A stretch of DNA of 64,000 nucleotides, from positions 5,227-69,226 of the forward strand of contig JABHZY010000024.1 of the NCBI GenBank assembly GCA_018656065.1, given 5' to 3'. The DNA comes from Candidatus Komeilibacteria bacterium. Its GTDB lineage: Bacteria > Patescibacteriota > Patescibacteriia > UBA1558 > GWA2-36-10. The notes beneath the pieces were generated by a model, which was given only the letters and a program-made list of their open reading frames with translations, did no database searches and was not told the DNA's origin. The position numbers and the translations under genes are program-made. Shown here one piece after another: positions 12,480 to 53,242 of this stretch; position 1 is the first letter of the stretch, and every line of letters begins with the position of its first letter.

Positions 12480-12506
12480 GTATTAAATATAGATAATATA
12501 TTAATA

Positions 12507-12531
12507 AAATAGCTAATCTTAGCTATTTTTT
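12507..12531 (+). terminator. intrinsic terminator of the recombinase gene
   Basis: AAATAGCTAA-TC-TTAGCTATTT hairpin followed by a T run. Confidence 0.6.
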
Positions 12532-12552
12532 AGTTTATTTAGATTATAACTC

Positions 12553-12581
12553 TTGACAAATATTAATATCTATGTTATAGT
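12553..12581 (+). promoter_or_regulatory. promoter of RNA A
   Basis: TTGACA, 17 nt, TATAGT. Confidence 0.65.
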
Positions 12582-12587
12582 GAGTAA

Positions 12588-12710
12588 TCACCCAAGGAAG
12601 GTGAAACTTATCTGGACCAGCAAAGTCCAAAAGATCCCCCGCTGCTGGCGTTCGTCCCCCGTTTTCTCCTCACATGGAGAATTCTAGAACGCCAGCAGCC
12701 CCCCTTTTTT
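12588..12710 (+). ncRNA. orphan GC-rich small RNA A (about 123 nt), family unknown
   Basis: Starts downstream of a consensus promoter. Hairpins CACC/GGTG and TGGAC/GTCCA. A 13-bp stem (12641-53 / 12687-99) encloses a CUCC/GGAG hairpin. Ends in T6. No ATG ORF with an RBS. Confidence 0.55.
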
Positions 12711-12759
12711 ATAAGGGTTTTTTGTTTATTTAAAAATTTAGCTAAAATGAAAAAAGGGA

Positions 12760-12969
12760 CCTTACGATCAGATCCCTCTTCTTCCACCCCAGCACATGGG
12801 CCAGAATGGGTGCTCCCTATAAGGAAGCTGAGAAAGCGGCGTTCCGGATTAGCGTGTCGGTCTTCACGAAGGTTCAGCTTTACACTAATGACCTAGTGAA
12901 GTTTTAAACCAATTACATCAAATCCAGATGCCTACTTTACATTGTTGGTACGTTTGCTTTTTGAGCACA
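12760..12969 (-). ncRNA. orphan GC-rich RNA B (about 210 nt), family unknown
   Basis: Minus-strand promoter at 12976-13004. 3' hairpin GGGAUC/GGUCCC (12766-86) plus U6. Its U.G pair is valid only on the minus strand. Only ORFs of 16 codons or fewer. Confidence 0.55.
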
Positions 12970-12975
12970 AAAAGA

Positions 12976-13004
12976 ATAATATCACATATAGATATATTTG
13001 TCAA
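12976..13004 (-). promoter_or_regulatory. promoter of RNA B
   Basis: TTGACA(13004-12999), 17 nt, TATTAT(12981-12976) on the minus strand, directly after the M23 gene terminator. Confidence 0.6.
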
Positions 13005-13009
13005 TAGTA

Positions 13010-13040
13010 AAAGCCCCTATAGAAAAGGGGCTAATTTTAG
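13010..13040 (-). terminator. intrinsic terminator of the M23 peptidase gene
   Basis: AGCCCCT/AGGGGCT hairpin followed by a T run on the minus strand. Confidence 0.65.
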
Positions 13041-13060
13041 TTAAAATTTTATAGTATTAA

Positions 13061-14314
13061 TTAAGGCAGATAATTCAATGGATTAACAGGAATTCCGTTT
13101 AGACGTACTTCTAAATGAAGATGAGGTCCAGTAGAAAATGGTCCAGCTCCTCTAGTACCAGGCATACCACCAGTATAGCCGATAATATCCCCTTTAGAGA
13201 CAAATTGATCAGCGCTAACATTTATTTTATTAACATGACCATAGACACTAGATAGACCATCAGCATGGACTAGCATAATATAGCTATAACCAGTTGCTCC
13301 TCCATCTCTAGCTTTAGCTACGTAACCTGACTCTGCAGCTCTAAGAGCAGTGCCTTGTGGAGTAGCAATATCTATGGCATTATGTTCAAAAATATATCTA
13401 TAAGGATAATCTGGATCATGGAAATAAGCAGTTATCCGTTGTGATGGTATGGGCCACATTAATCCATCGCTATCAATACTATCTAATTGTAATTGACGGT
13501 TTAATTTTTCTCGAGCAATTTTTTCTAGATAAACTATATCATTATCAATTTGTTTTTGCTCTTCTTTAGCCTGACGAAGCAATTCTTGATATTTAGCTTC
13601 TTGACCTTCAGTAGAAGCCATTAAATTGAACTTTGATATTTTTTGTCCGTCTAAATTTCCTTTTTTACCATTTAATATATTTTTCAGAGTATCTAATTCA
13701 GTTTTTTCATTTTCTAAACTATCTTTATCATTATTTAAGGCTAATTTTATTTCTCCAAGATTTTCTACTCCTTCAAAAAGATTATCTTGCATATCTTCTA
13801 ACCTATTTAGGTCAGCTATAAAATCACTAAAATTATCATTTAGTATTAAAATTTCTAGCAAACTAGATTTTTGTTGTTGTCTATGTAGAGATCTAATTAC
13901 TTCAGCTAAGATGTCTTTTTGGTCATCTATCTCGTTTTCTTTAGCGTCTATCTTTAATTCAGTATTTTCTATTTTTAAATCAAGAGTTTCAACTTCTAAA
14001 CCAGCTGCTTCAATTTCTAAATTAATTTTAGCAATACTTTCATTAAGAGTACTAACTTGGTTAGAAAGACTGCCTAGTTCTTTTTGTTTAGCATAGATAT
14101 TTTTTTGATAGATATCTATTTGTCTATGTAATTCTTGAATTTCTGATCTTTTAGCATTAATATCCTGATTTACTTGCCATGTTTCCACAGTATCTAAGGT
14201 ATCTAATTTATACTCTACGGCTAAGCCGTTATTTGGCAAAAAAATAAAACTAAGCAGTGCTATAGTTAATATACTGGATAATACTCTAATAGTTTTTATT
14301 TTTATTTGTAGCAT
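13061..14314 (-). CDS. M23 family metallopeptidase with long coiled-coil (EnvC-like)
   Basis: Signal/TM N-terminus and about 250 aa of coiled coil. C-terminal HNAIDIA...GPHLHLEV LytM motifs. Confidence 0.9.
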   Translation of the reverse strand: MLQIKIKTIRVLSSILTIALLSFIFLPNNGLAVEYKLDTLDTVETWQVNQDINAKRSEIQELHRQIDIYQKNIYAKQKELGSLSNQVSTLNESIAKINLEIEAAGLEVETLDLKIENTELKIDAKENEIDDQKDILAEVIRSLHRQQQKSSLLEILILNDNFSDFIADLNRLEDMQDNLFEGVENLGEIKLALNNDKDSLENEKTELDTLKNILNGKKGNLDGQKISKFNLMASTEGQEAKYQELLRQAKEEQKQIDNDIVYLEKIAREKLNRQLQLDSIDSDGLMWPIPSQRITAYFHDPDYPYRYIFEHNAIDIATPQGTALRAAESGYVAKARDGGATGYSYIMLVHADGLSSVYGHVNKINVSADQFVSKGDIIGYTGGMPGTRGAGPFSTGPHLHLEVRLNGIPVNPLNYLP

Positions 14315-30226: not shown

Positions 30227-30233
30227 AGTTTTC

Positions 30234-30422
30234 TTATGCTTGTTCGGATTTTTTATCCATTATTTTTTTAATAATGAGAATAATAACTAATACTGCTGCT
30301 CCGCCTACTAACATTAAAAATGTCTTGTCTTGGTAAAAAGATGTTGCTTCAACGCCAGCTTCTTGAGCTTGAGCAGCTTTAGCCATAAAAATTAGACTAC
30401 TTAAGATTAATGCTTTTTTCAT
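30234..30422 (-). CDS. small secreted/membrane protein (62 aa)
   Basis: Signal peptide ending AQAQE plus one TM helix. Confidence 0.45.
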   Translation of the reverse strand: MKKALILSSLIFMAKAAQAQEAGVEATSFYQDKTFLMLVGGAAVLVIILIIKKIMDKKSEQA

Positions 30423-30479
30423 AGTTTTTGTTTAATTATTTTATATATTAAATATACCAAATTTAGCTTAATATCACAA

Positions 30480-32216: not shown

Positions 32217-32309
32217 ATTATTATAATTCAAAAAATTTACTGTTTTTACAGTAAATCTGTATATATTTTAGTAAATTATAGCTTAAAAGTCAACTTATTT
32301 TAGTAAGTT

Positions 32310-32610
32310 AAAAACCCTGTCAGAGTACGAAGAAGCTGAAAGGGGGTTCAGCAGCTCGTTGATCACGAAGTGATCCTCTGACAGGGTGTGTCGTGGTGGA
32401 CCTTGATTAGGTTCCGCTCCGCTCTGATCGTGTGGCAGCGCTAGGCAATTTATTACCTAAATCAAGGTCCAACTATATTAATAGGGTCATCGGTGGAGGT
32501 CTGCTATAGCTGCTGGATCTAAAAGATCCATTGGCTTGGGTGCGTACACAGCCACAGCCACAGCCTCATGGAGGAGAGAAAGACACATCGATGACCCAAG
32601 AACATATAAC
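32310..32610 (-). ncRNA. orphan GC-rich structured RNA D1 (about 300 nt, three domains); strand tentative
   Basis: Three domains: an 11-bp stem 32315-25 / 32376-86 closing a three-way junction; a 15-bp stem 32398-412 / 32455-70; and a 12-bp stem 32484-95 / 32586-97. On the minus strand it is preceded by TTGACT-17-TATACT and ends in U5. One G.U in the third stem favours the plus strand instead. Confidence 0.45.
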
Positions 32611-32616
32611 CGAGCC

Positions 32617-32645
32617 AGTATATATTATATACTAAAGATAGTCAA
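32617..32645 (-). promoter_or_regulatory. candidate promoter of RNA D1
   Basis: TTGACT(32645-40), 17 nt, TATACT(32622-17) on the minus strand. Confidence 0.4.
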
Positions 32646-32661
32646 TATCTAGCAAATAAAC

Positions 32662-38271: not shown

Positions 38272-38322
38272 ATTTTTATTATAACTTATTGAAGAATAAA
38301 AACCGCCTATCTGGCGGTTTTC

Positions 38323-38442
38323 TTATTTGGTTTTTTTCTTAGCTTTTTCTTCAAGCATCACTCGTTTTGCTTCTAGTCTTTTAGCTGTTTTTTTAGAGCT
38401 AGATTTTTGTACTCTACCAACAGCATGTCTTCTTTTTGCCAT
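38323..38442 (-). CDS. unlisted small basic protein (39 aa) MAKRRHAVGRVQKSSSKKTAKRLEAKRVMLEEKAKKKTK
   Basis: ATG-to-TAA ORF below the track cutoff. Immediately followed by the CCGCC/GGCGG terminator (38302-17). About 45 percent K+R. Confidence 0.45.
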   Translation of the reverse strand: MAKRRHAVGRVQKSSSKKTAKRLEAKRVMLEEKAKKKTK

Positions 38443-38513
38443 ATAAGTGTCATTTATTATTAATTACAGAGGTATACTAGCTTGTTATTGGAATAAAATC
38501 AAGGCTGCGGGGC

Positions 38514-40151
38514 TTATTTGCCAATAATACATTGATTCTTCTCACAAAGTGGATATCCAGCTCCACAGTCAATTGGACCTTCACAACTAGCCGTACAAGG
38601 TGCGTCAATTGGATCAGGAGCATATTTTTTATTAATGTAATCTGTAGGATGACAAATTCTATCAGGCACGCAATCATCAACTGTTTCACACATATGCGAA
38701 AGAACATAAACTAAATCTACAGGTTTATTTTCATCTGAATTATCCTCTTGGTTTGAATCATCATCAACTTCTTCAGCTATATTTTCTAATTTTTTACGAA
38801 ATACAATAGCATTAGGTAAAGATCTGCCTGGTCCAATCATATAAGAATTATCATAATATAAAGCCGAACTACCACCGCCATCTAAATTTAGTGCTTCGGT
38901 AGCTCCTAAAGTTTTAAAAATCTCAGCAAAGTCTATCATATTAGCTGACCTAGCAATAACTAAATAAATATTCTGATCATCATAACCAATGCCACCTCTA
39001 GTTGCTTTTGAATTATAACTACTATAATGAGGCTCAGAATTTACAACTACTACACCATTTTCTATTAGGGAAGGACGATTTGAAATTCCTGCTATTTGAG
39101 TTGTGTTCCTATAAGTTAGCCAAGCTCCTATATTAGATAAACCTTTGTTTGGTCTATGAAAATGAAAATATTCACCGTTGGCTCCAGCGGCCATCCATGA
39201 GCCGTTGTGATAAAAACCAATATCTCTATTTATAACTATATTTAAATTACTATTTAAAACTGGAGATAAAAAAGAATTTTTAGTGCTTGCGCATTCAGCA
39301 TAATCTGGCGGACAAAAGTATGTTCCATTTATACCAATTTCAGCTGAGTTGTCTTGAACATAGGAAGCTAATGATTTAGTAGCGCAATCTCCATCGCAGT
39401 CTGCACTAATGGCAGTATCAGTTATCATCAAATATTTATCTTTAGTTAAAGTAACTAAACTAATATCAAAAGAACCTCTGCTGGTATCTATAGTGTATCT
39501 TTTATAAGATGAATATTCATCCAGTATTTCAGAATCTTGTATTATTGAAATTTTATCTAGATTGGCATTTGTGATACCTAAGCTCAAATACCTCATAATC
39601 TGATAGGCAGCTGGTCCATCTGGCATATAATATCTTTTATTATCAACTGGATTTATATACCAAGCTTCTCCATGAGCCTCTACCTGCAGGAGAATTTTAC
39701 CACTTAAATCACTGGCTAAATTATTATCATATATAGGTTTTTCTTCTCCTAAAGGATTTTGATTATTTCTTACTTCTTGACCATCACTTAAACCATCACC
39801 ATCAGTATCATAATTATAAGCATCGGTTCCTAGTCCATCTTCTAATTTATTACAAAGACCATCGCTATCTGAATCTAAACATTCAAAACGATCTTCAAAA
39901 CCAATTGGAATCTTAGTTAAGTTAGTATTAGTAATTCCTAGACCTAAGTCTCTCATCATTCCATAAGCAGCATTACCATCAGCCATATACATTCGACGAC
40001 CATCAGATGGTTGAACATACCAAGCCTCGCCATTTTCCTCTACTTGAAGCAAAATACGACCTCTAAGCCTAGTTTCAGCTGGAGCAGCCTCTGTAGACCC
40101 AATAGTAGTGAATAATATTAAGCCCATAATAACTAATAAAAGCTTTTTCAT
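38514..40151 (-). CDS. secreted multidomain protein with a phosphodiester glycosidase (DUF2233/NAGPA-like) domain
   Basis: Signal peptide. Two repeats of about 55 aa (ILLQVE..GEAWY...LGITN.NL.KI). Thrombospondin type 3-like DxDxDG repeats. INGTYF and LDGGGSSALY motifs. Cys-rich C-terminus. Confidence 0.7.
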   Translation of the reverse strand: MKKLLLVIMGLILFTTIGSTEAAPAETRLRGRILLQVEENGEAWYVQPSDGRRMYMADGNAAYGMMRDLGLGITNTNLTKIPIGFEDRFECLDSDSDGLCNKLEDGLGTDAYNYDTDGDGLSDGQEVRNNQNPLGEEKPIYDNNLASDLSGKILLQVEAHGEAWYINPVDNKRYYMPDGPAAYQIMRYLSLGITNANLDKISIIQDSEILDEYSSYKRYTIDTSRGSFDISLVTLTKDKYLMITDTAISADCDGDCATKSLASYVQDNSAEIGINGTYFCPPDYAECASTKNSFLSPVLNSNLNIVINRDIGFYHNGSWMAAGANGEYFHFHRPNKGLSNIGAWLTYRNTTQIAGISNRPSLIENGVVVVNSEPHYSSYNSKATRGGIGYDDQNIYLVIARSANMIDFAEIFKTLGATEALNLDGGGSSALYYDNSYMIGPGRSLPNAIVFRKKLENIAEEVDDDSNQEDNSDENKPVDLVYVLSHMCETVDDCVPDRICHPTDYINKKYAPDPIDAPCTASCEGPIDCGAGYPLCEKNQCIIGK

Positions 40152-40154
40152 ATT

Positions 40155-40754
40155 CTATTCAACAAAAGAAAAACTCTTAACTACTTTTTCAAAGATAGCT
40201 TCACTAGCCTCATTATCATTAGAAACATACAATAATCTATATGTGACATCGCCCTTTACTAAATGATATTCAATCATTTTTTTATCGTCAGTTTGTATTT
40301 CAAAGCGTGTGGCTGCTTGTCCAGCAACAGTAATTTCTTTAGTAATATAATCATCTTTGTCTTTAGCTAAATCTTCTAAGCTAATTCTAGACTTTTCTAT
40401 TACAATCTGTCCTAAATATTCAGACATTAAGCCCATAAGCCCATCCTTGTCTATAATTAAATAATCATCGATTAATTCATTGCTACCAGCAGTTTCTATA
40501 TCAGATTTCATAAAATGTTGCCAATACCAACCATCTGGTCTCATAACTGTGTAACCCATAGCCTTGTTTTCATATAAGACATATTCCTCTTCATCATCTG
40601 TAATAGCTAGATTATGATCTTTAATAAGGTCTTTTACTTCTTCAGCTTCTGTTATTGTATCTTCTGCTTTCTCAAATTCATCAACAACTTTTGAGCTACA
40701 AGCTGCGCCCATTAAAAAAGTAAGAACGAATAAACTTAGTAATATTTTTTTCAT
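40155..40754 (-). CDS. putative lipoprotein (199 aa)
   Basis: Signal peptide ending FLMGAAC. Confidence 0.55.
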   Translation of the reverse strand: MKKILLSLFVLTFLMGAACSSKVVDEFEKAEDTITEAEEVKDLIKDHNLAITDDEEEYVLYENKAMGYTVMRPDGWYWQHFMKSDIETAGSNELIDDYLIIDKDGLMGLMSEYLGQIVIEKSRISLEDLAKDKDDYITKEITVAGQAATRFEIQTDDKKMIEYHLVKGDVTYRLLYVSNDNEASEAIFEKVVKSFSFVE

Positions 40755-40779
40755 GGTTTTTTTATTAATTTATAATTTA

Positions 40780-41568
40780 TTAATATTGTCCTTTGCCTTT
40801 ATATTTTCCACTACGTACAGCTTCAGCTCCGCCTATCTCTGCCTGATTTGTTTTATGGTAGGCTTCAGAGGCAGTGAATTCAGATAAAATTTTCTCAATC
40901 ATTTCTGGCTGATCTTTATAACGTTCACGTAAAAAATCTTCTGCTGCTAAAAACTTAACTTCCATTGAGACTAGCTCTGGCTTCTTTTCCTTCATTGCTT
41001 CCCAAAAAGCTTCAGCTCTATCAAGACGTAAATCAAGTAAGAGGAAAGCTACTTTAGTTAATCCCTCGGCATGAGCAAGCTCTATTGAATTTTCAACATC
41101 ATCCTGAGTAGTTTTAGTCTTATCAAGTATTTTTATATTTTCATTACCTAAATTTTCAGAAGCATTAGTTTCTCTTTCAAATACTTCCATCATAGGTCCA
41201 GCTTCACTTAAAGAAGGATTATCGGCTGCATGTTTATCAAGAGCAGCAGCACGTCCTGCGGCAAAAATAACTAGCTTTGGAGGAACCCCCTTTTTTACTA
41301 GATCTTCATAATATTGCGCTGCAGCCAATGTTACGGCATTACCTCCACCAACAATGGCATTTTCACCGTCTTTATCTAAGTCTAAGTTCCTTTCTGCTGT
41401 TCGCCAGCCTTTATCATCAACTTCTTGAATAAGACGCGTAGGCTTCCATTTTTCTTCTCCTTTGACATCTACACGTTCAATACTATGCCCAGGAACAACA
41501 ATGACTTCTGCCTGATACAATTCTGACGGTTCTTGTTCTGCAGATAATTTTTCTCTATTAAACTTCAT
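40780..41568 (-). CDS. hypothetical protein (262 aa)
   Basis: ORF with no signal peptide. The ATG lies 6 nt after a TACAAT -10. Family not recognised with confidence. Confidence 0.55.
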   Translation of the reverse strand: MKFNREKLSAEQEPSELYQAEVIVVPGHSIERVDVKGEEKWKPTRLIQEVDDKGWRTAERNLDLDKDGENAIVGGGNAVTLAAAQYYEDLVKKGVPPKLVIFAAGRAAALDKHAADNPSLSEAGPMMEVFERETNASENLGNENIKILDKTKTTQDDVENSIELAHAEGLTKVAFLLLDLRLDRAEAFWEAMKEKKPELVSMEVKFLAAEDFLRERYKDQPEMIEKILSEFTASEAYHKTNQAEIGGAEAVRSGKYKGKGQY

Positions 41569-41574
41569 AGCTTT

Positions 41575-41607
41575 ATTGTAGCTTATTTTAGAAAAACAAA
41601 AAAGCCC
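41575..41607 (-). promoter_or_regulatory. conserved 33-nt promoter motif, copy 1
   Basis: Minus strand GGGCTTTTTTGTTTTTCTAAAATAAGCTACAAT. Nearly identical to the copies at 43270 and 43941. Confidence 0.55.
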
Positions 41608-41621
41608 AAAAATTTGGGCAA

Positions 41622-41802
41622 AAGAAAAAAGATTGAGAGGGGTTGGTGTGAAAGAAAAAGTGTTGATGGGGTTTGTTGTTGTGTGATAAGTGTGCAGTGT
41701 TGGGGATGCACTTTCTACTGCCTAACTTTTAAGCTTCAGAAAGCACATCCACAATCACTATACTTATCTTCCCTACGATTTCTTTCTACTCTCAATCTTT
41801 GA
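41622..41802 (-). ncRNA. orphan rod-like RNA E (about 180 nt), family unknown
   Basis: TTTACA-16-TATTAT promoter (41836-41809, minus). 11-bp closing stem 41629-39 / 41789-99 followed by U6. 13-bp apical stem 41704-16 / 41748-60 with two wobble pairs valid only on the minus strand. The 3' arm is CA- and C-rich. Confidence 0.55.
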
Positions 41803-41863
41803 GTCCTAATAATAACATATCTATAAAATATGTAAAGTCTAAGTTATACACAAGGTGTCCATT

Positions 41864-43243
41864 TTAATTCACTACTATTACACTATTTAAATCAGGATCT
41901 CCACTAACAGTATAAGTGCCATAAGTATTAATTTTCCAGACAAAGTAAGCTTGACCATTATCATCGGCTACTATTATTTGTCGTTTTGCTGCGACTACTC
42001 CTGGACCAGCTAAGGACAAAGTCATTTCAGTACCTGGGACAGTGGCTATAGCAGCGTAAATTTCACTGTATTCTCCTGGCTTAACATGTTCAAAAGAAGT
42101 TTGCATTACTATACTAAGTTCTTGTCCATCAAATTCTCCAACTAATCCACTAGTTTCCGTTTCGGTCATTGGATCAAGAGCTGTACCACTACTTAAAGGA
42201 GTTTCCCAAATTTGAACAAAACCCCAACTTAATGCTGTAATACCTTCGTAAGGACCATAATTTGTTATTCGATTACTACGCACCTCTACGGTCTCTGACC
42301 CTTCTTCAGCATCTGTGTAAGGATCATTGATATCTAAATAAGTTTGACCATCACCCTGATGAATCCCAGTAACAGTTACCATATGTCCACCAGTAGATTT
42401 ACCATCTGCATTAGCAAACTTTATACGTAATTCAACAGAAGCACCTTTTTCTAAAGCCTCTCTAATAGGATCTATAGTTTCAATGCCGTGTGTATCACCT
42501 ACTTTTGTAGTTCTAATTGGCAAGCCATGTCTAGCTGCCCAAAGATTTTTACCAGTTACAAAATCATCAGACTGAACACCATTAGCCATATTCCATTTCA
42601 TATCTTCTTTCAGCTCCTCTATCAATTCTTCTGGTTTTATAGATTTGTCTTCAGCATCTCCATGTTGATTTATGAGCGAGATTAAACCATTGGCTGCTGC
42701 GGTAGGAGCGCACTCACCTTTTTTTTGATCTATATCAGGTACATTCTCTTGAGTTATTTCAATTAATCCGTCATCAGCATAGACCAAATTAACTCCTAGG
42801 CCTTTCATAGCTTCTTCTGGATTGGTAATGGTGTCCAAATCCATTAACTCACTTAAATCAGATATTTTTATACTTACATTTTTACTAACACTTTCATCAT
42901 CAAGTTGGACTAAAATATTTTGTTCTTCAACAAAATTATCTGGCGCTTTAAAATATACTTTATTTCTTTTATTAGCTTTAGCTAAGACCATCATATCTTT
43001 AACTAGCCATTCAGTAGCTTCAAATATTCCGTTGTTATCTGAATCTATGGCTAAACTTAATTTACTTCTACTATCTTCACTTGCTAAAAAGTTGATTCCT
43101 AGGGCAGCATTGCCATTATTATAGCTAATAAGGCTTAAATCTGAGCCCAAAACAGCTATATCAGGCTCCTTATCCTGACCTTTTAGTAAGAATATAGCTA
43201 TTATAACTATAATTATTACAATAATTGGTATTATTTTCTTCAT
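41864..43243 (-). CDS. membrane-anchored surface protein with a papain-like (C39-like) cysteine peptidase domain
   Basis: N-terminal TM helix. KKGECAPTAAANGLISL (candidate catalytic Cys) and STGGHMVTVTGI...NDPY (candidate His/Asp). Confidence 0.6.
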   Translation of the reverse strand: MKKIIPIIVIIIVIIAIFLLKGQDKEPDIAVLGSDLSLISYNNGNAALGINFLASEDSRSKLSLAIDSDNNGIFEATEWLVKDMMVLAKANKRNKVYFKAPDNFVEEQNILVQLDDESVSKNVSIKISDLSELMDLDTITNPEEAMKGLGVNLVYADDGLIEITQENVPDIDQKKGECAPTAAANGLISLINQHGDAEDKSIKPEELIEELKEDMKWNMANGVQSDDFVTGKNLWAARHGLPIRTTKVGDTHGIETIDPIREALEKGASVELRIKFANADGKSTGGHMVTVTGIHQGDGQTYLDINDPYTDAEEGSETVEVRSNRITNYGPYEGITALSWGFVQIWETPLSSGTALDPMTETETSGLVGEFDGQELSIVMQTSFEHVKPGEYSEIYAAIATVPGTEMTLSLAGPGVVAAKRQIIVADDNGQAYFVWKINTYGTYTVSGDPDLNSVIVVN

Positions 43244-43269
43244 ATATTTATATTAAAGATTATAATTTT

Positions 43270-43302
43270 ACTATAGCTTATTTTAGAAAAACAAAAAAGC
43301 CC
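43270..43302 (-). promoter_or_regulatory. conserved 33-nt promoter motif, copy 2
   Basis: Minus strand GGGCTTTTTTGTTTTTCTAAAATAAGCTATAGT. Confidence 0.55.
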
Positions 43303-43340
43303 TGAAGTAGGGCTATAGAATAATATTAGAACTTTTTTAA

Positions 43341-43934
43341 CTAAATAATTTTAAATGCTATTAAGATAGCAATAATAATTAAACTTGCAGCGGCAAGTTC
43401 TTTTTTAAATCTTAACTTATCTACTCTTTCTGCAAAATAAATTGCAATTGATACTTGTATGAGTGTAGCTACATATATGCCTATGATAACTAAAGTTTTT
43501 TCGTAGAAATTACGCTCTAAAAAAATAGGCACAATCACAATAATATCATCCAGTATAGTTAAAAAAGATATAACAAAGCCTAGACCTATTAATTCCAGAA
43601 AACGAGCATTACTTATCTTTTTTATTTTGGCCACTTCTTTGGCTGTTTGTTTTTTACGCTCTGGCATAAAAAGACCAAAATAAATACCAATAGCTAAGGT
43701 AATAATAATACCAGCGATAATATAACGTACACCCGGAACACTTTTAATAGCTTCTGAAAATAAAATAGCCAAAATTATAGCTGCGGTAAGTGATAATAAT
43801 GTACCAATTGAAAAAGCTACTTTACCGAGCCTTGTTTTGGTAAGTGATGCAATGACTGGAATTCTAGTTAATGTATCATCAAAGCTAGCTACTGCTTTTA
43901 CTAAAAAACCTAAACTTATATTTTTGAATATCAT
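43341..43934 (-). CDS. integral membrane protein (197 aa, about 6 TM helices)
   Basis: Hydrophobic throughout. The ATG lies 6 nt after a TATGAT -10. Confidence 0.6.
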   Translation of the reverse strand: MIFKNISLGFLVKAVASFDDTLTRIPVIASLTKTRLGKVAFSIGTLLSLTAAIILAILFSEAIKSVPGVRYIIAGIIITLAIGIYFGLFMPERKKQTAKEVAKIKKISNARFLELIGLGFVISFLTILDDIIVIVPIFLERNFYEKTLVIIGIYVATLIQVSIAIYFAERVDKLRFKKELAAASLIIIAILIAFKII

Positions 43935-43940
43935 GACTGT

Positions 43941-43973
43941 ATCATAGCTTATTTTAGGGAAACAAAAAAGCCC
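43941..43973 (-). promoter_or_regulatory. conserved 33-nt promoter motif, copy 3
   Basis: Minus strand GGGCTTTTTTGTTTCCCTAAAATAAGCTATGAT. Confidence 0.55.
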
Positions 43974-43979
43974 CTAGGA

Positions 43980-44008
43980 TTGACAATATTAGTATAAAAT
44001 AGTTATAT
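43980..44008 (+). promoter_or_regulatory. promoter of the 139-aa gene
   Basis: TTGACA, 17 nt, TTATAT. Divergent from motif copy 3. Confidence 0.55.
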
Positions 44009-44058
44009 GTAGTTGTTAGTATAGTTCTTGTCACAAACCTCGGAAAGAGGGTGTCATT

Positions 44059-44478
44059 ATGTACTGGAAAAATGATGCTGAAGCAATCGCATTTTTACAA
44101 TCGCGCGGACAACTAATCCCTATGGATCCTAAAGACATCAGAGAAGTTGCCACATTAATTCTTGATTTAGAATTAAAGAGGGCTAGAGAAGCTGAAGAGG
44201 CAGCTGAAAAAAGAACTGCTAGAGAAAAAAGAGGTCTCCGAAATTGGGATATAATCAAAAGAGGTCGCGAAGTTGTAGAAGCTGAAGAGGCAGCTGAAGA
44301 AGCTCGCATCAGACAGGCTGCAGCCGATGAATTTAAGCGACGAAAAGAAGCTGAGGAGGCGGCTAATCGTTGTTCATCATGCGGTAAAATTAAAAAAACC
44401 TGTAACACATGCAGTACGACGGTATGTTGTGGAACAAACATAAGTGGGTACTGCTGGCATTGCTGGCATGATGATTGA
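44059..44478 (+). CDS. orphan GC-rich protein (139 aa): charged helical region plus Cys-rich C-terminus
   Basis: SD AGAGGGTG before the ATG. EAEEAAE repeated three times. Tail CSSCGKIKKTCNTCSTTVCCGTNISGYCWHCWHDD. Own terminator. Confidence 0.65.
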   Translation: MYWKNDAEAIAFLQSRGQLIPMDPKDIREVATLILDLELKRAREAEEAAEKRTAREKRGLRNWDIIKRGREVVEAEEAAEEARIRQAAADEFKRRKEAEEAANRCSSCGKIKKTCNTCSTTVCCGTNISGYCWHCWHDD

Positions 44479-44479
44479 A

Positions 44480-44513
44480 GAGCGTTCGAAAATTCGGGCG
44501 CTCGTTTCTTTTT
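44480..44513 (+). terminator. intrinsic terminator of the 139-aa gene
   Basis: GAGCGTTCGAA/TTCGGGCGCTC stem with two U.G pairs valid only on the plus strand, followed by a T-rich run. Confidence 0.6.
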
Positions 44514-44619
44514 ATCTAAAATTTACAAACAAAAAATCATCTCAAAAGATGACTTTCTGTTGACAGGGGTGTTGGGACATGATTGGAACTTTTTTTGATG
44601 AAAATGCTTAATAATTGTA

Positions 44620-44979
44620 TTATTTTTGTCTGTCTGATTTCCAATTATTATAATCTACACAGCTTTTACCATCCCAACAAAACTTTTCACCACAAGTACA
44701 CTGCTCTCTATATGATTCTTCTAGACTACACGTATAATCAATATGCCCTTGCATCCCCTCATTTTCAAGCTGTCTTTCACAGCTTGGCGGCGGCGCGCAG
44801 GAAGTAATTGTTTGCCATTCACCTCCACTAATTTTACAATCTATCTCTATATCGCCAGTTAGCTTATTTTTTTTAACTTCTTCTCGTACAACTTCTTCTT
44901 TACTACTATTATATTCTTTCCAAACAAATACTCCTCCAAATATAATAGCTGAAATTAAAATGGATAAAATAATTTTCAT
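44620..44979 (-). CDS. small secreted/anchored Cys-rich protein (119 aa)
   Basis: N-terminal hydrophobic helix. 10 Cys in the mature part. Confidence 0.55.
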   Translation of the reverse strand: MKIILSILISAIIFGGVFVWKEYNSSKEEVVREEVKKNKLTGDIEIDCKISGGEWQTITSCAPPPSCERQLENEGMQGHIDYTCSLEESYREQCTCGEKFCWDGKSCVDYNNWKSDRQK

Positions 44980-51850: not shown

Positions 51851-51982
51851 ATTTGTATTTATATTATACCCTTTTTTGAACTTTTTTTAAAGTCTTAATT
51901 AAAACAAAACACCTTCCTTATCTATCAAACAATAGATATTTACAAAGGAAGGTGTTTTTTTAAATTTTATATTAAGATGTTT

Positions 51983-53095: not shown

Positions 53096-53242
53096 ATACT
53101 TTCTTTACAATTTATCTGATTTTATTTGTAATAATAAAATTCCATTATAAAGTAACATATTTTCTAAAATTAGTCAAGACCCCTAGCATGAATATACCAG
53201 CGGTCTTGAGTTATTAGCTAATTTTAGCCAAAATTGTAATTT

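Follow-up and report, generated by a model that had tools for sequence, protein, structure and literature searches.

The question raised by this locus is whether the gap of 295 nt on the minus strand between the gene for a C39-like peptidase (41864-43243) and a gene for a protein of 262 aa (40780-41568) houses a gene for a discrete RNA and, if so, what kind of RNA this would be. The gap is located in the window, by which we mean the whole stretch of 64 kb of DNA that was analyzed, and the candidate is here called RNA E. Judged from the sequence, the intergenic stretch is a stand-alone gene for a conserved, structured non-coding RNA of about 205 nt on the minus strand. A promoter and an intrinsic terminator bracket a conserved non-coding block independently of the neighboring genes, and the helices of the predicted structure have been kept by compensatory changes in the 2 sequences compared, from the window and from the related locus L085. 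The first-pass annotation had proposed a discrete, structured RNA gene on the minus strand, a proposal borne out by the homolog in L085, which keeps the promoter, the rod-shaped structure with all of its consensus pairs, and the terminator. It had also regarded a plus-strand open reading frame in the same interval as an artefact, and no conserved open reading frame was identified on either strand in the comparison of the window with L085.

The window has a GC content of 31%, and the homologs identified bear the names Parcubacteria, Paceibacteria, Komeilibacteria, and Patescibacteria. Both neighboring genes of the RNA are poorly conserved, their closest homologs being 66% to 70% identical. No Shine-Dalgarno motif was found upstream of the 62 genes in the window, and many of these genes have a TATAAT-like box 6 to 7 nt before the ATG codon, which indicates widespread leaderless mRNAs. 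Promoter-like sites that match at least 11 of 12 positions were mostly intergenic (11 of 13 sites), in a window of which intergenic DNA makes up about 9%, and of the sites with 10 of 12 matches 20 of 47 were intergenic. The concentration of the strong promoter-like sites in intergenic DNA indicates that the sigma-70 consensus is informative in this organism.

The promoter scan identified a minus-strand promoter at 41836-41809 with the layout TTTACA-16-TATTAT, just as previously described, and additionally with TG at positions -15/-14. The -35 box TTTACA (41831..41836) is aligned opposite TTGACA in L085, and the extended -10 box TGtTATTAT (41809..41817) has the counterpart TGaTATTAT, so that the promoter in L085 reads TTGACA-16-TGaTATTAT. 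From the promoter geometry, transcription of the window RNA is predicted to start at 41802..41806 on the minus strand, 3 to 7 nt past the -10 box and 2 to 6 nt ahead of the closing helix; the predicted start in L085 is located 1 to 6 nt ahead of the closing helix.

At the other end, the first-pass annotation had placed a run of 6 U residues after a closing helix of 11 bp and a second terminator at 41604-19. The helix stands, with 12 bp, and the second terminator is the real and conserved one: the terminator scan identified an intrinsic terminator at 41598..41619 on the minus strand, with the hairpin GCCCAA-AUUU-UUGGGC (41619-41604) followed by UUUUUU, and a similar hairpin followed by TTTTTTGTTT is located behind the homolog in L085. 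The U run, on the other hand, does not hold as a terminator. It consists of a U-rich linker (UUUCUUUU, 41620..41627 on the minus strand) together with the UUU that closes the P1 helix, and it is not kept in L085, which has GAAUCAUG where the window has U6 after the closing helix. The terminator at 41598..41619 is probably the 3' end of the RNA. Since it is the downstream hairpin terminator that is conserved as the 3' end, the transcript is predicted to be about 205 nt rather than the 180 nt previously suggested, and the previously recognized rod, which is 173 nt long (41800-41628, minus strand), is followed by the terminator hairpin.

Together with its tail (GGGCTTTTTTGTTTYYCTAAAATAAGCTA), the terminator makes up a cassette that is present in 3 copies in the window, each ahead of one of 3 consecutive genes. 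This terminator-tail/promoter cassette, GGGCTTTTTTGTTTYYCTAAAATAAGCTAYRRTA, is located on the minus strand at 41574-41607, 43269-43302, and 43940-43973, directly 5' of the genes for the 262-, 459-, and 197-aa proteins, and is seen 3 times with 0 copies expected by chance in the window. The copy behind RNA E is similar to the 3' flank of the homolog in L085, which suggests that the module was locally duplicated.

Folding of 237 nt of the minus strand gave a minimum free energy (MFE) of -72.3 kcal/mol (z = -7.3), and 0 of 200 shuffled sequences were as good; the fold of the plus strand was weaker (-68.5 kcal/mol, z = -4.5). The rod contains 60 pairs, and the arms pair along their whole length, as had been proposed, with all of the helices then listed. 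Five of the pairs are G-U on the minus strand, including 3 in a 14-bp stem and 1 in a distal helix, which agrees with the earlier claim of minus-strand wobble pairs in kind but not in number, as only 2 had been counted. The 5' arm is 72 nt long and 67% purine, whereas the 3' arm is 98 nt long and thus 26 nt longer, close to the 25 nt estimated before, the excess being located in A/C-rich bulges. The 5' arm has 12 unpaired bases and the 3' arm has 38, of which 34 (about 90%) are A or C.

The rod is closed by P1, a helix of 12 bp on the minus strand between AAAGAUUGAGAG (41789..41800) and CUCUCAAUCUUU (41628..41639), in which 3 of the 12 pairs have both bases replaced in L085 and 1 has a single base replaced, without loss of pairing; the U run follows directly. 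Next to P1, a 10-nt bulge ACACCAACCC (41640..41649, minus strand) faces UA (41788-41787) and represents the best-conserved unpaired element. P2 is formed by GAAAGAAA (41779..41786) and UUUCUUUC (41650..41657), also on the minus strand, and its pairs are kept in L085 with 2 compensatory changes. Within the conserved GGGAA motif (41771..41775, minus strand), GGG (41773-41771) pairs with CCC at 41670-41668, and AA (41770-41769) is unpaired. It is followed by P3, in which GAUAAGU (41762..41768, minus strand) pairs with ACUUAUC and which shows 3 compensatory pairs, and by a further inner helix, UAGUG/CACUG. The apical hairpin (41704..41750, minus strand) has a 14-bp stem (GGAUGUGCUUUCUG and UAGAAAGUGCAUCC), an AA/AG internal loop, a distal helix of 6 bp, and an AAG loop, where a 13-bp stem had been described. 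It differs from the hairpin in L085 by 3 compensatory pairs; 2 G-U pairs are common to both, and the loop sequences are not conserved, with AAG in the window versus UCAC in L085. The descending 3' arm (41658..41703, minus strand) carries CA-rich bulges (CAC; ACACAACAACAAAC; AUCAAC..UU) that are broken up by the partners of P3 and GGG.

The homolog in L085, a relative with 81% MnmA identity, was reached via the conserved mnmA gene, 3.2 kb upstream of the RNA, and not via the genes immediately flanking it. It is located at 12929-13112 in L085, where a covariance model built from the single window sequence matched positions 12932-13108 (81.6 bits, E = 9e-17) and nhmmer independently aligned positions 12899-13153 (E = 6.7e-19), from the promoter through the terminator. 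The conserved block extends from the -35 box to just past the terminator, and the sequences upstream of the -35 box could not be aligned. The rod in L085 folds with -67.7 kcal/mol (z = -7.0), and its sequence identity to the rod in the window is 65%, and 54% for the unpaired columns. The RNAalifold consensus of the 2 sequences has 49 pairs, every one of which is formed by the window RNA and by its homolog, with no broken pair; both bases differ at 11 of these pairs and a single base at 4. This answers the earlier call for a covariation check, although the covariation statistics are weak in that there are 2 distinct sequences, from which the structure itself was also derived. When the 3' partners were slid by 1 to 3 columns as a control, pairing dropped to 40% to 53%, with 0 to 2 double changes.

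The pairs of alignment columns 73-93 and 78-88 are G-U in both species, others alternate with A-U, and the strand under selection is therefore the minus-strand RNA. In both RNAs the rod has 60 pairs and a 5' arm of 72 nt, 12 bases of which are unpaired; on the 3' arm, 33 to 38 bases are unpaired, 79% to 89% of them A or C, and the arms differ in length by 21 to 26 nt. The one-sided, A/C-rich bulging is thus kept in L085, but the bulge sequences differ. At the junction of P1 and P2, by contrast, the asymmetric loop is near-invariant, with 5' UA facing 3' A(C/G)ACCAACCC and 11 of 12 positions identical.

The mnmA gene and its relatives keep the order secD-secF-sigma-DUF8128-traG-like-PYNP-mnmA, and the stretch from mnmA to greA is variable. 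A comparison of 38514-44979 with L085, L086, L092, and the P0083 contig identified the mnmA-greA interval as a hotspot where gene content varies among close relatives. The window has about 6.7 kb of extra sequence in this interval, including the genes that flank RNA E, and this block contains mostly unannotated, apparently surface-related genes, such as those for the C39-like peptidase and a NAGPA/TSP3-repeat protein.

Eight copies of the RNA in public assemblies, 7 in metagenome contigs and 1 in the MAG GCA_018651305.1, were 100% identical to the window, and in the MAG the flanking proteins of the window matched contig JABIEH010000018.1. No homolog was found within 10 kb of MnmA in L086 and L092 (77% to 78% MnmA identity) with filters off, and neither nhmmer nor the covariance models R1 and R2 detected a related RNA at the loci with homologs of the 262-aa gene (L007-L009) or of the C39-like gene (L010-L012 and 29 further genome loci, L013-L041). 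There was no second copy in the 64-kb window and a single copy in the 21-kb L085 locus. A scan of metagenomes with the pattern AAACCCCATCN{12,22}CACCAACCCC, the first anchor of which is not kept in L085, returned 43 loci, of which 1 was real and identical to the window. A scan of viral contigs with the conserved apical-stem pattern gave 0 matches, and BLAST searches of phages and plasmids gave no match to RNA E. The RNA family may be narrow or fast-evolving.

A hairpin of about 105 nt at 13213-13345 in L024, a MAG named 'Saccharibacteria', matched R2 with 22 bits (rough E = 0.008). It is asymmetric in purines and pyrimidines, shares GGAUGAA...UUCAUCCC and AACCCCUA with the RNA in L085, is flanked by genes for a hibernation factor and a cyclophilin, and may represent either chance similarity or a relative that is distant or minimal. 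The hairpin was not taken as a member of the family, as its strand is ambiguous and it has no clear promoter and is located between 2 plus-strand genes.

A search against Rfam 15 identified only a tRNA in the window. Beyond this, searches at the gathering threshold and at permissive thresholds, which covered the window, the element, its homolog, and 3 related loci, gave only chance matches to miRNA hairpins, with no 6S, SRP, or other bacterial family among them. ARAGORN identified no tmRNA in the window. A retron msr-msd RNA could be dismissed, as there is no reverse transcriptase domain among the neighbors in the window and the neighbors in L085 are greA and a pilin-like gene, and so could a bridge RNA or omega RNA, as no recombinase or TnpB gene is adjacent.

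We give an even chance to the reading that RNA E represents a new family of stand-alone structured RNAs, so far with members in 2 related Patescibacteria, that acts in trans as a protein-binding scaffold or decoy. The near-invariant UA/ANACCAACCC loop would be the site of specific protein recognition, and the A/C-rich bulges, always single-stranded, would provide secondary contacts or serve as hinges. Protein binding is suggested by the architecture, in that selection acts on the geometry of the whole rod and on one loop, whereas the other bulges keep their A/C composition alone. A rod with closed ends and one conserved loop is typical of RNAs that are recognized by proteins, such as 4.5S, 6S, and Y RNAs, rather than of antisense RNAs of the seed type.

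The main rival to protein binding is a base-pairing role of ACCAACCCC. According to this explanation, which we consider rather unlikely, RNA E would be a trans-acting small RNA that uses the ACCAACCCC bulge, and perhaps other C-rich stretches, as a seed for G/U-rich GGGGUUGGU sites. The bulge would be well suited for this role, being the best-conserved unpaired stretch and open in the MFE and centroid folds alike; the A/C-rich bulges are unable to pair with themselves and hence accessible, and exposed C-rich motifs are used as seeds in small RNAs of the RsaE/RoxS type. However, complementarity to the loops within the 64-kb window was no better than for shuffled-loop controls, the GGGGTTGG sites were not located at orthologous places in the window and L085, and no strong duplex was found near the gene starts at either locus, in searches that covered about 6% of each genome. 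Furthermore, the lack of Shine-Dalgarno sequences and the many leaderless mRNAs make an anti-Shine-Dalgarno mode unavailable, and selection on a full rod of 60 bp with paired ends is unusual for small RNAs of the seed type.

Another possibility, which we regard as unlikely, is a lineage-specific regulator that sequesters a protein, either as an inverted analogue of 6S RNA that would bind RNA polymerase, or as a decoy that would capture a single-strand RNA-binding protein via the regularly spaced A/C-rich 3' bulges and the invariant ACCAACCCC loop. If true, either version would be the first characterized riboregulator of this radiation of symbiotic bacteria with reduced genomes.

Canonical 6S RNA is a rod of 160 to 200 nt in which a closing stem and an apical stem are separated by a large 5' central bulge, the site of the product-RNA start, with a hairpin on the opposite side (PMC8414754). 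The first-pass annotation had drawn attention to this likeness as an analogy only, and as a statement about family it failed: membership in the 6S family is not supported. That RNA E should be the 6S equivalent of this lineage, mimicking an open promoter to sequester the sigma-70 RNA polymerase holoenzyme and serving as a template for short product RNAs, is in our view distinctly improbable. The length and shape do fit, with 173 nt, 60 pairs, paired ends, a closing part of about 20 bp, and an apical part of about 35 bp, and the strong promoter is typical of abundant stable RNAs. The absence of an Rfam 6S RNA from the window and the 3 related loci means that the niche could be open, and the location of the L085 copy next to greA is circumstantial evidence in the same direction. 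However, there was no match to RF00013 or any other 6S model at E ≤ 10 in approximately 400 nt of either copy (451 nt from the window and 381 nt from L085). The large 5' central bulge and the hairpin opposite to it are both lacking, as the central 5' strand is almost fully paired in the window and L085, with loops of 1 to 2 nt, and the unpaired bases are located on the 3' strand and so rich in A and C that no hairpin is possible there. An open bubble in the central region is not conserved, and the RNA was not detected in the 2 relatives at 77% to 78% MnmA identity within the loci at hand.

The reading of the element as a part of a neighboring transcript, either a leader or attenuator of the downstream operon for the 262-aa, 199-aa, and 545-aa proteins or the 3' UTR of the gene for the C39-like peptidase, was largely refuted by the context in L085, and we consider it very unlikely. 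In the window, the RNA is located between 2 co-directional genes, with the terminator 30 nt before the next ATG codon, as such an element would be. In L085, however, it occurs without either of the flanking genes in the window, and its neighbors are greA, in divergent orientation, and a pilin-like gene, in convergent orientation; having no co-directional neighbor, the RNA in L085 is neither a leader nor a 3' UTR. The element was also absent beside the homologs of the downstream gene (62% to 69% identity, L007 and L008) and the upstream gene (58% to 66%, L010-L012 and 29 further loci), a TACAAT box that belongs to the downstream gene itself precedes its ATG codon by 6 nt, which is the usual leaderless layout in this genome, and the very stable rod leaves no alternative antiterminator fold.

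A palindrome that acts at the DNA level, for instance a recombination site or a mobile element of the MITE type, deserves very little credence, since the perfect 12-bp terminal inverted repeats, the hairpin potential on both strands, the location in the variable mnmA-greA island, and the cassette repeats nearby are outweighed by the presence of one copy each in the 64 kb of the window and the 21 kb of the L085 locus, the lack of matches in the phage and plasmid collections, an arm asymmetry of 21 to 26 nt that is conserved in both species, conserved G-U pairs that would be A-C mismatches on the opposite strand, a conserved promoter and terminator that bracket the rod, and the absence of an evident target-site duplication.

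Other parts of the window also contained putative structured RNAs. A second unclassified RNA was identified just 5' of alaS (32232-32648 on the minus strand; 15561-15883 in L085), with its own promoter of the TTGACT/TATAAT type and a terminator, a length of approximately 330 nt, and z = -9.5. In its alignment to L085 (nhmmer E-value of 1e-22), both bases differ at 16 pairs. A conserved minihelix, GGACCUUG...CAAGGUCC, with ACCA behind it is reminiscent of the acceptor end of a tRNA; there was no match to Rfam, and ARAGORN did not identify it as a tmRNA. The region 12480-13060 contains 2 divergent units on opposite strands, each with a near-consensus promoter, a structured RNA (z about -8) with no Rfam match, and a terminator: a minus-strand unit with TTGACA-17-TATTAT and approximately 235 nt, and a plus-strand unit with TTGACA-17-TATAGT and approximately 140 nt. 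These could be divergent housekeeping RNAs. The intergenic regions at 53096-53242 and 51851-51982 (minus strand), which flank a gene for a sigma-70-type protein, are structured (z about -5) and kept in L085, L086, and L090 (nhmmer E-values down to 4e-20), and may be leaders or regulatory elements. Finally, 2 conserved regions that were nominally intergenic, 30227-30479 and 38272-38513, are probably unannotated genes for small proteins; in relatives, short open reading frames have been called there, of 70 to 79 aa between alaS and the gene for the hibernation factor, and of 39 to 44 aa before a methyltransferase gene.

The Patescibacteria, or CPR, have tiny genomes and few regulators, and regulatory RNAs are essentially undescribed in these bacteria, as far as could be seen from the literature searched. 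RNA E is a concrete candidate for a riboregulator, being strongly promoted, structurally constrained, placed outside Rfam, and kept across species. The presence in the same window of at least one more conserved, unclassified structured RNA, 5' of alaS, suggests that the non-coding RNA repertoire of the lineage is largely uncharted, and the covariance model R2, built from the alignment of the 2 sequences, can be used directly for a survey of all CPR genomes.

Among known systems, RNA E shares with RsaE/RoxS and CrcZ the exposed CCCC and AACAACAA-type stretches, which are single-stranded on a structured body, but it has no sequence or model similarity to them, and one of its C-rich stretches is conserved whereas the others are not. 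RsaE/RoxS target Shine-Dalgarno sequences, and CrcZ acts through Hfq/Crc. An assignment to the RsaE/RoxS type was rejected: the C-rich bulges are present, but the 62 genes of the window are without the motif that such RNAs target, and there is no Rfam match. With the small SRP RNA (4.5S; RF00169), Y RNA/YrlA, and Ms1, it has in common a single long hairpin with conserved asymmetric internal loops and covarying helices. The conserved loop of RNA E is located near the base of the rod and not at the apex, neither ffh nor rsr is adjacent, and there is no GNRA tetraloop; together with the variable apical loop and the lack of an Rfam match, this led us to reject an assignment to the small SRP RNA. 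In comparison to 6S RNA (ssrS; RF00013), whose large 5' central bulge faces a hairpin, RNA E is unpaired on the A/C-rich 3' arm and matches no 6S model, but both are stand-alone RNAs with a strong promoter that fold, in the size range of 160 to 200 nt, into a rod with paired ends, a closing stem, and a long apical stem with small loops.
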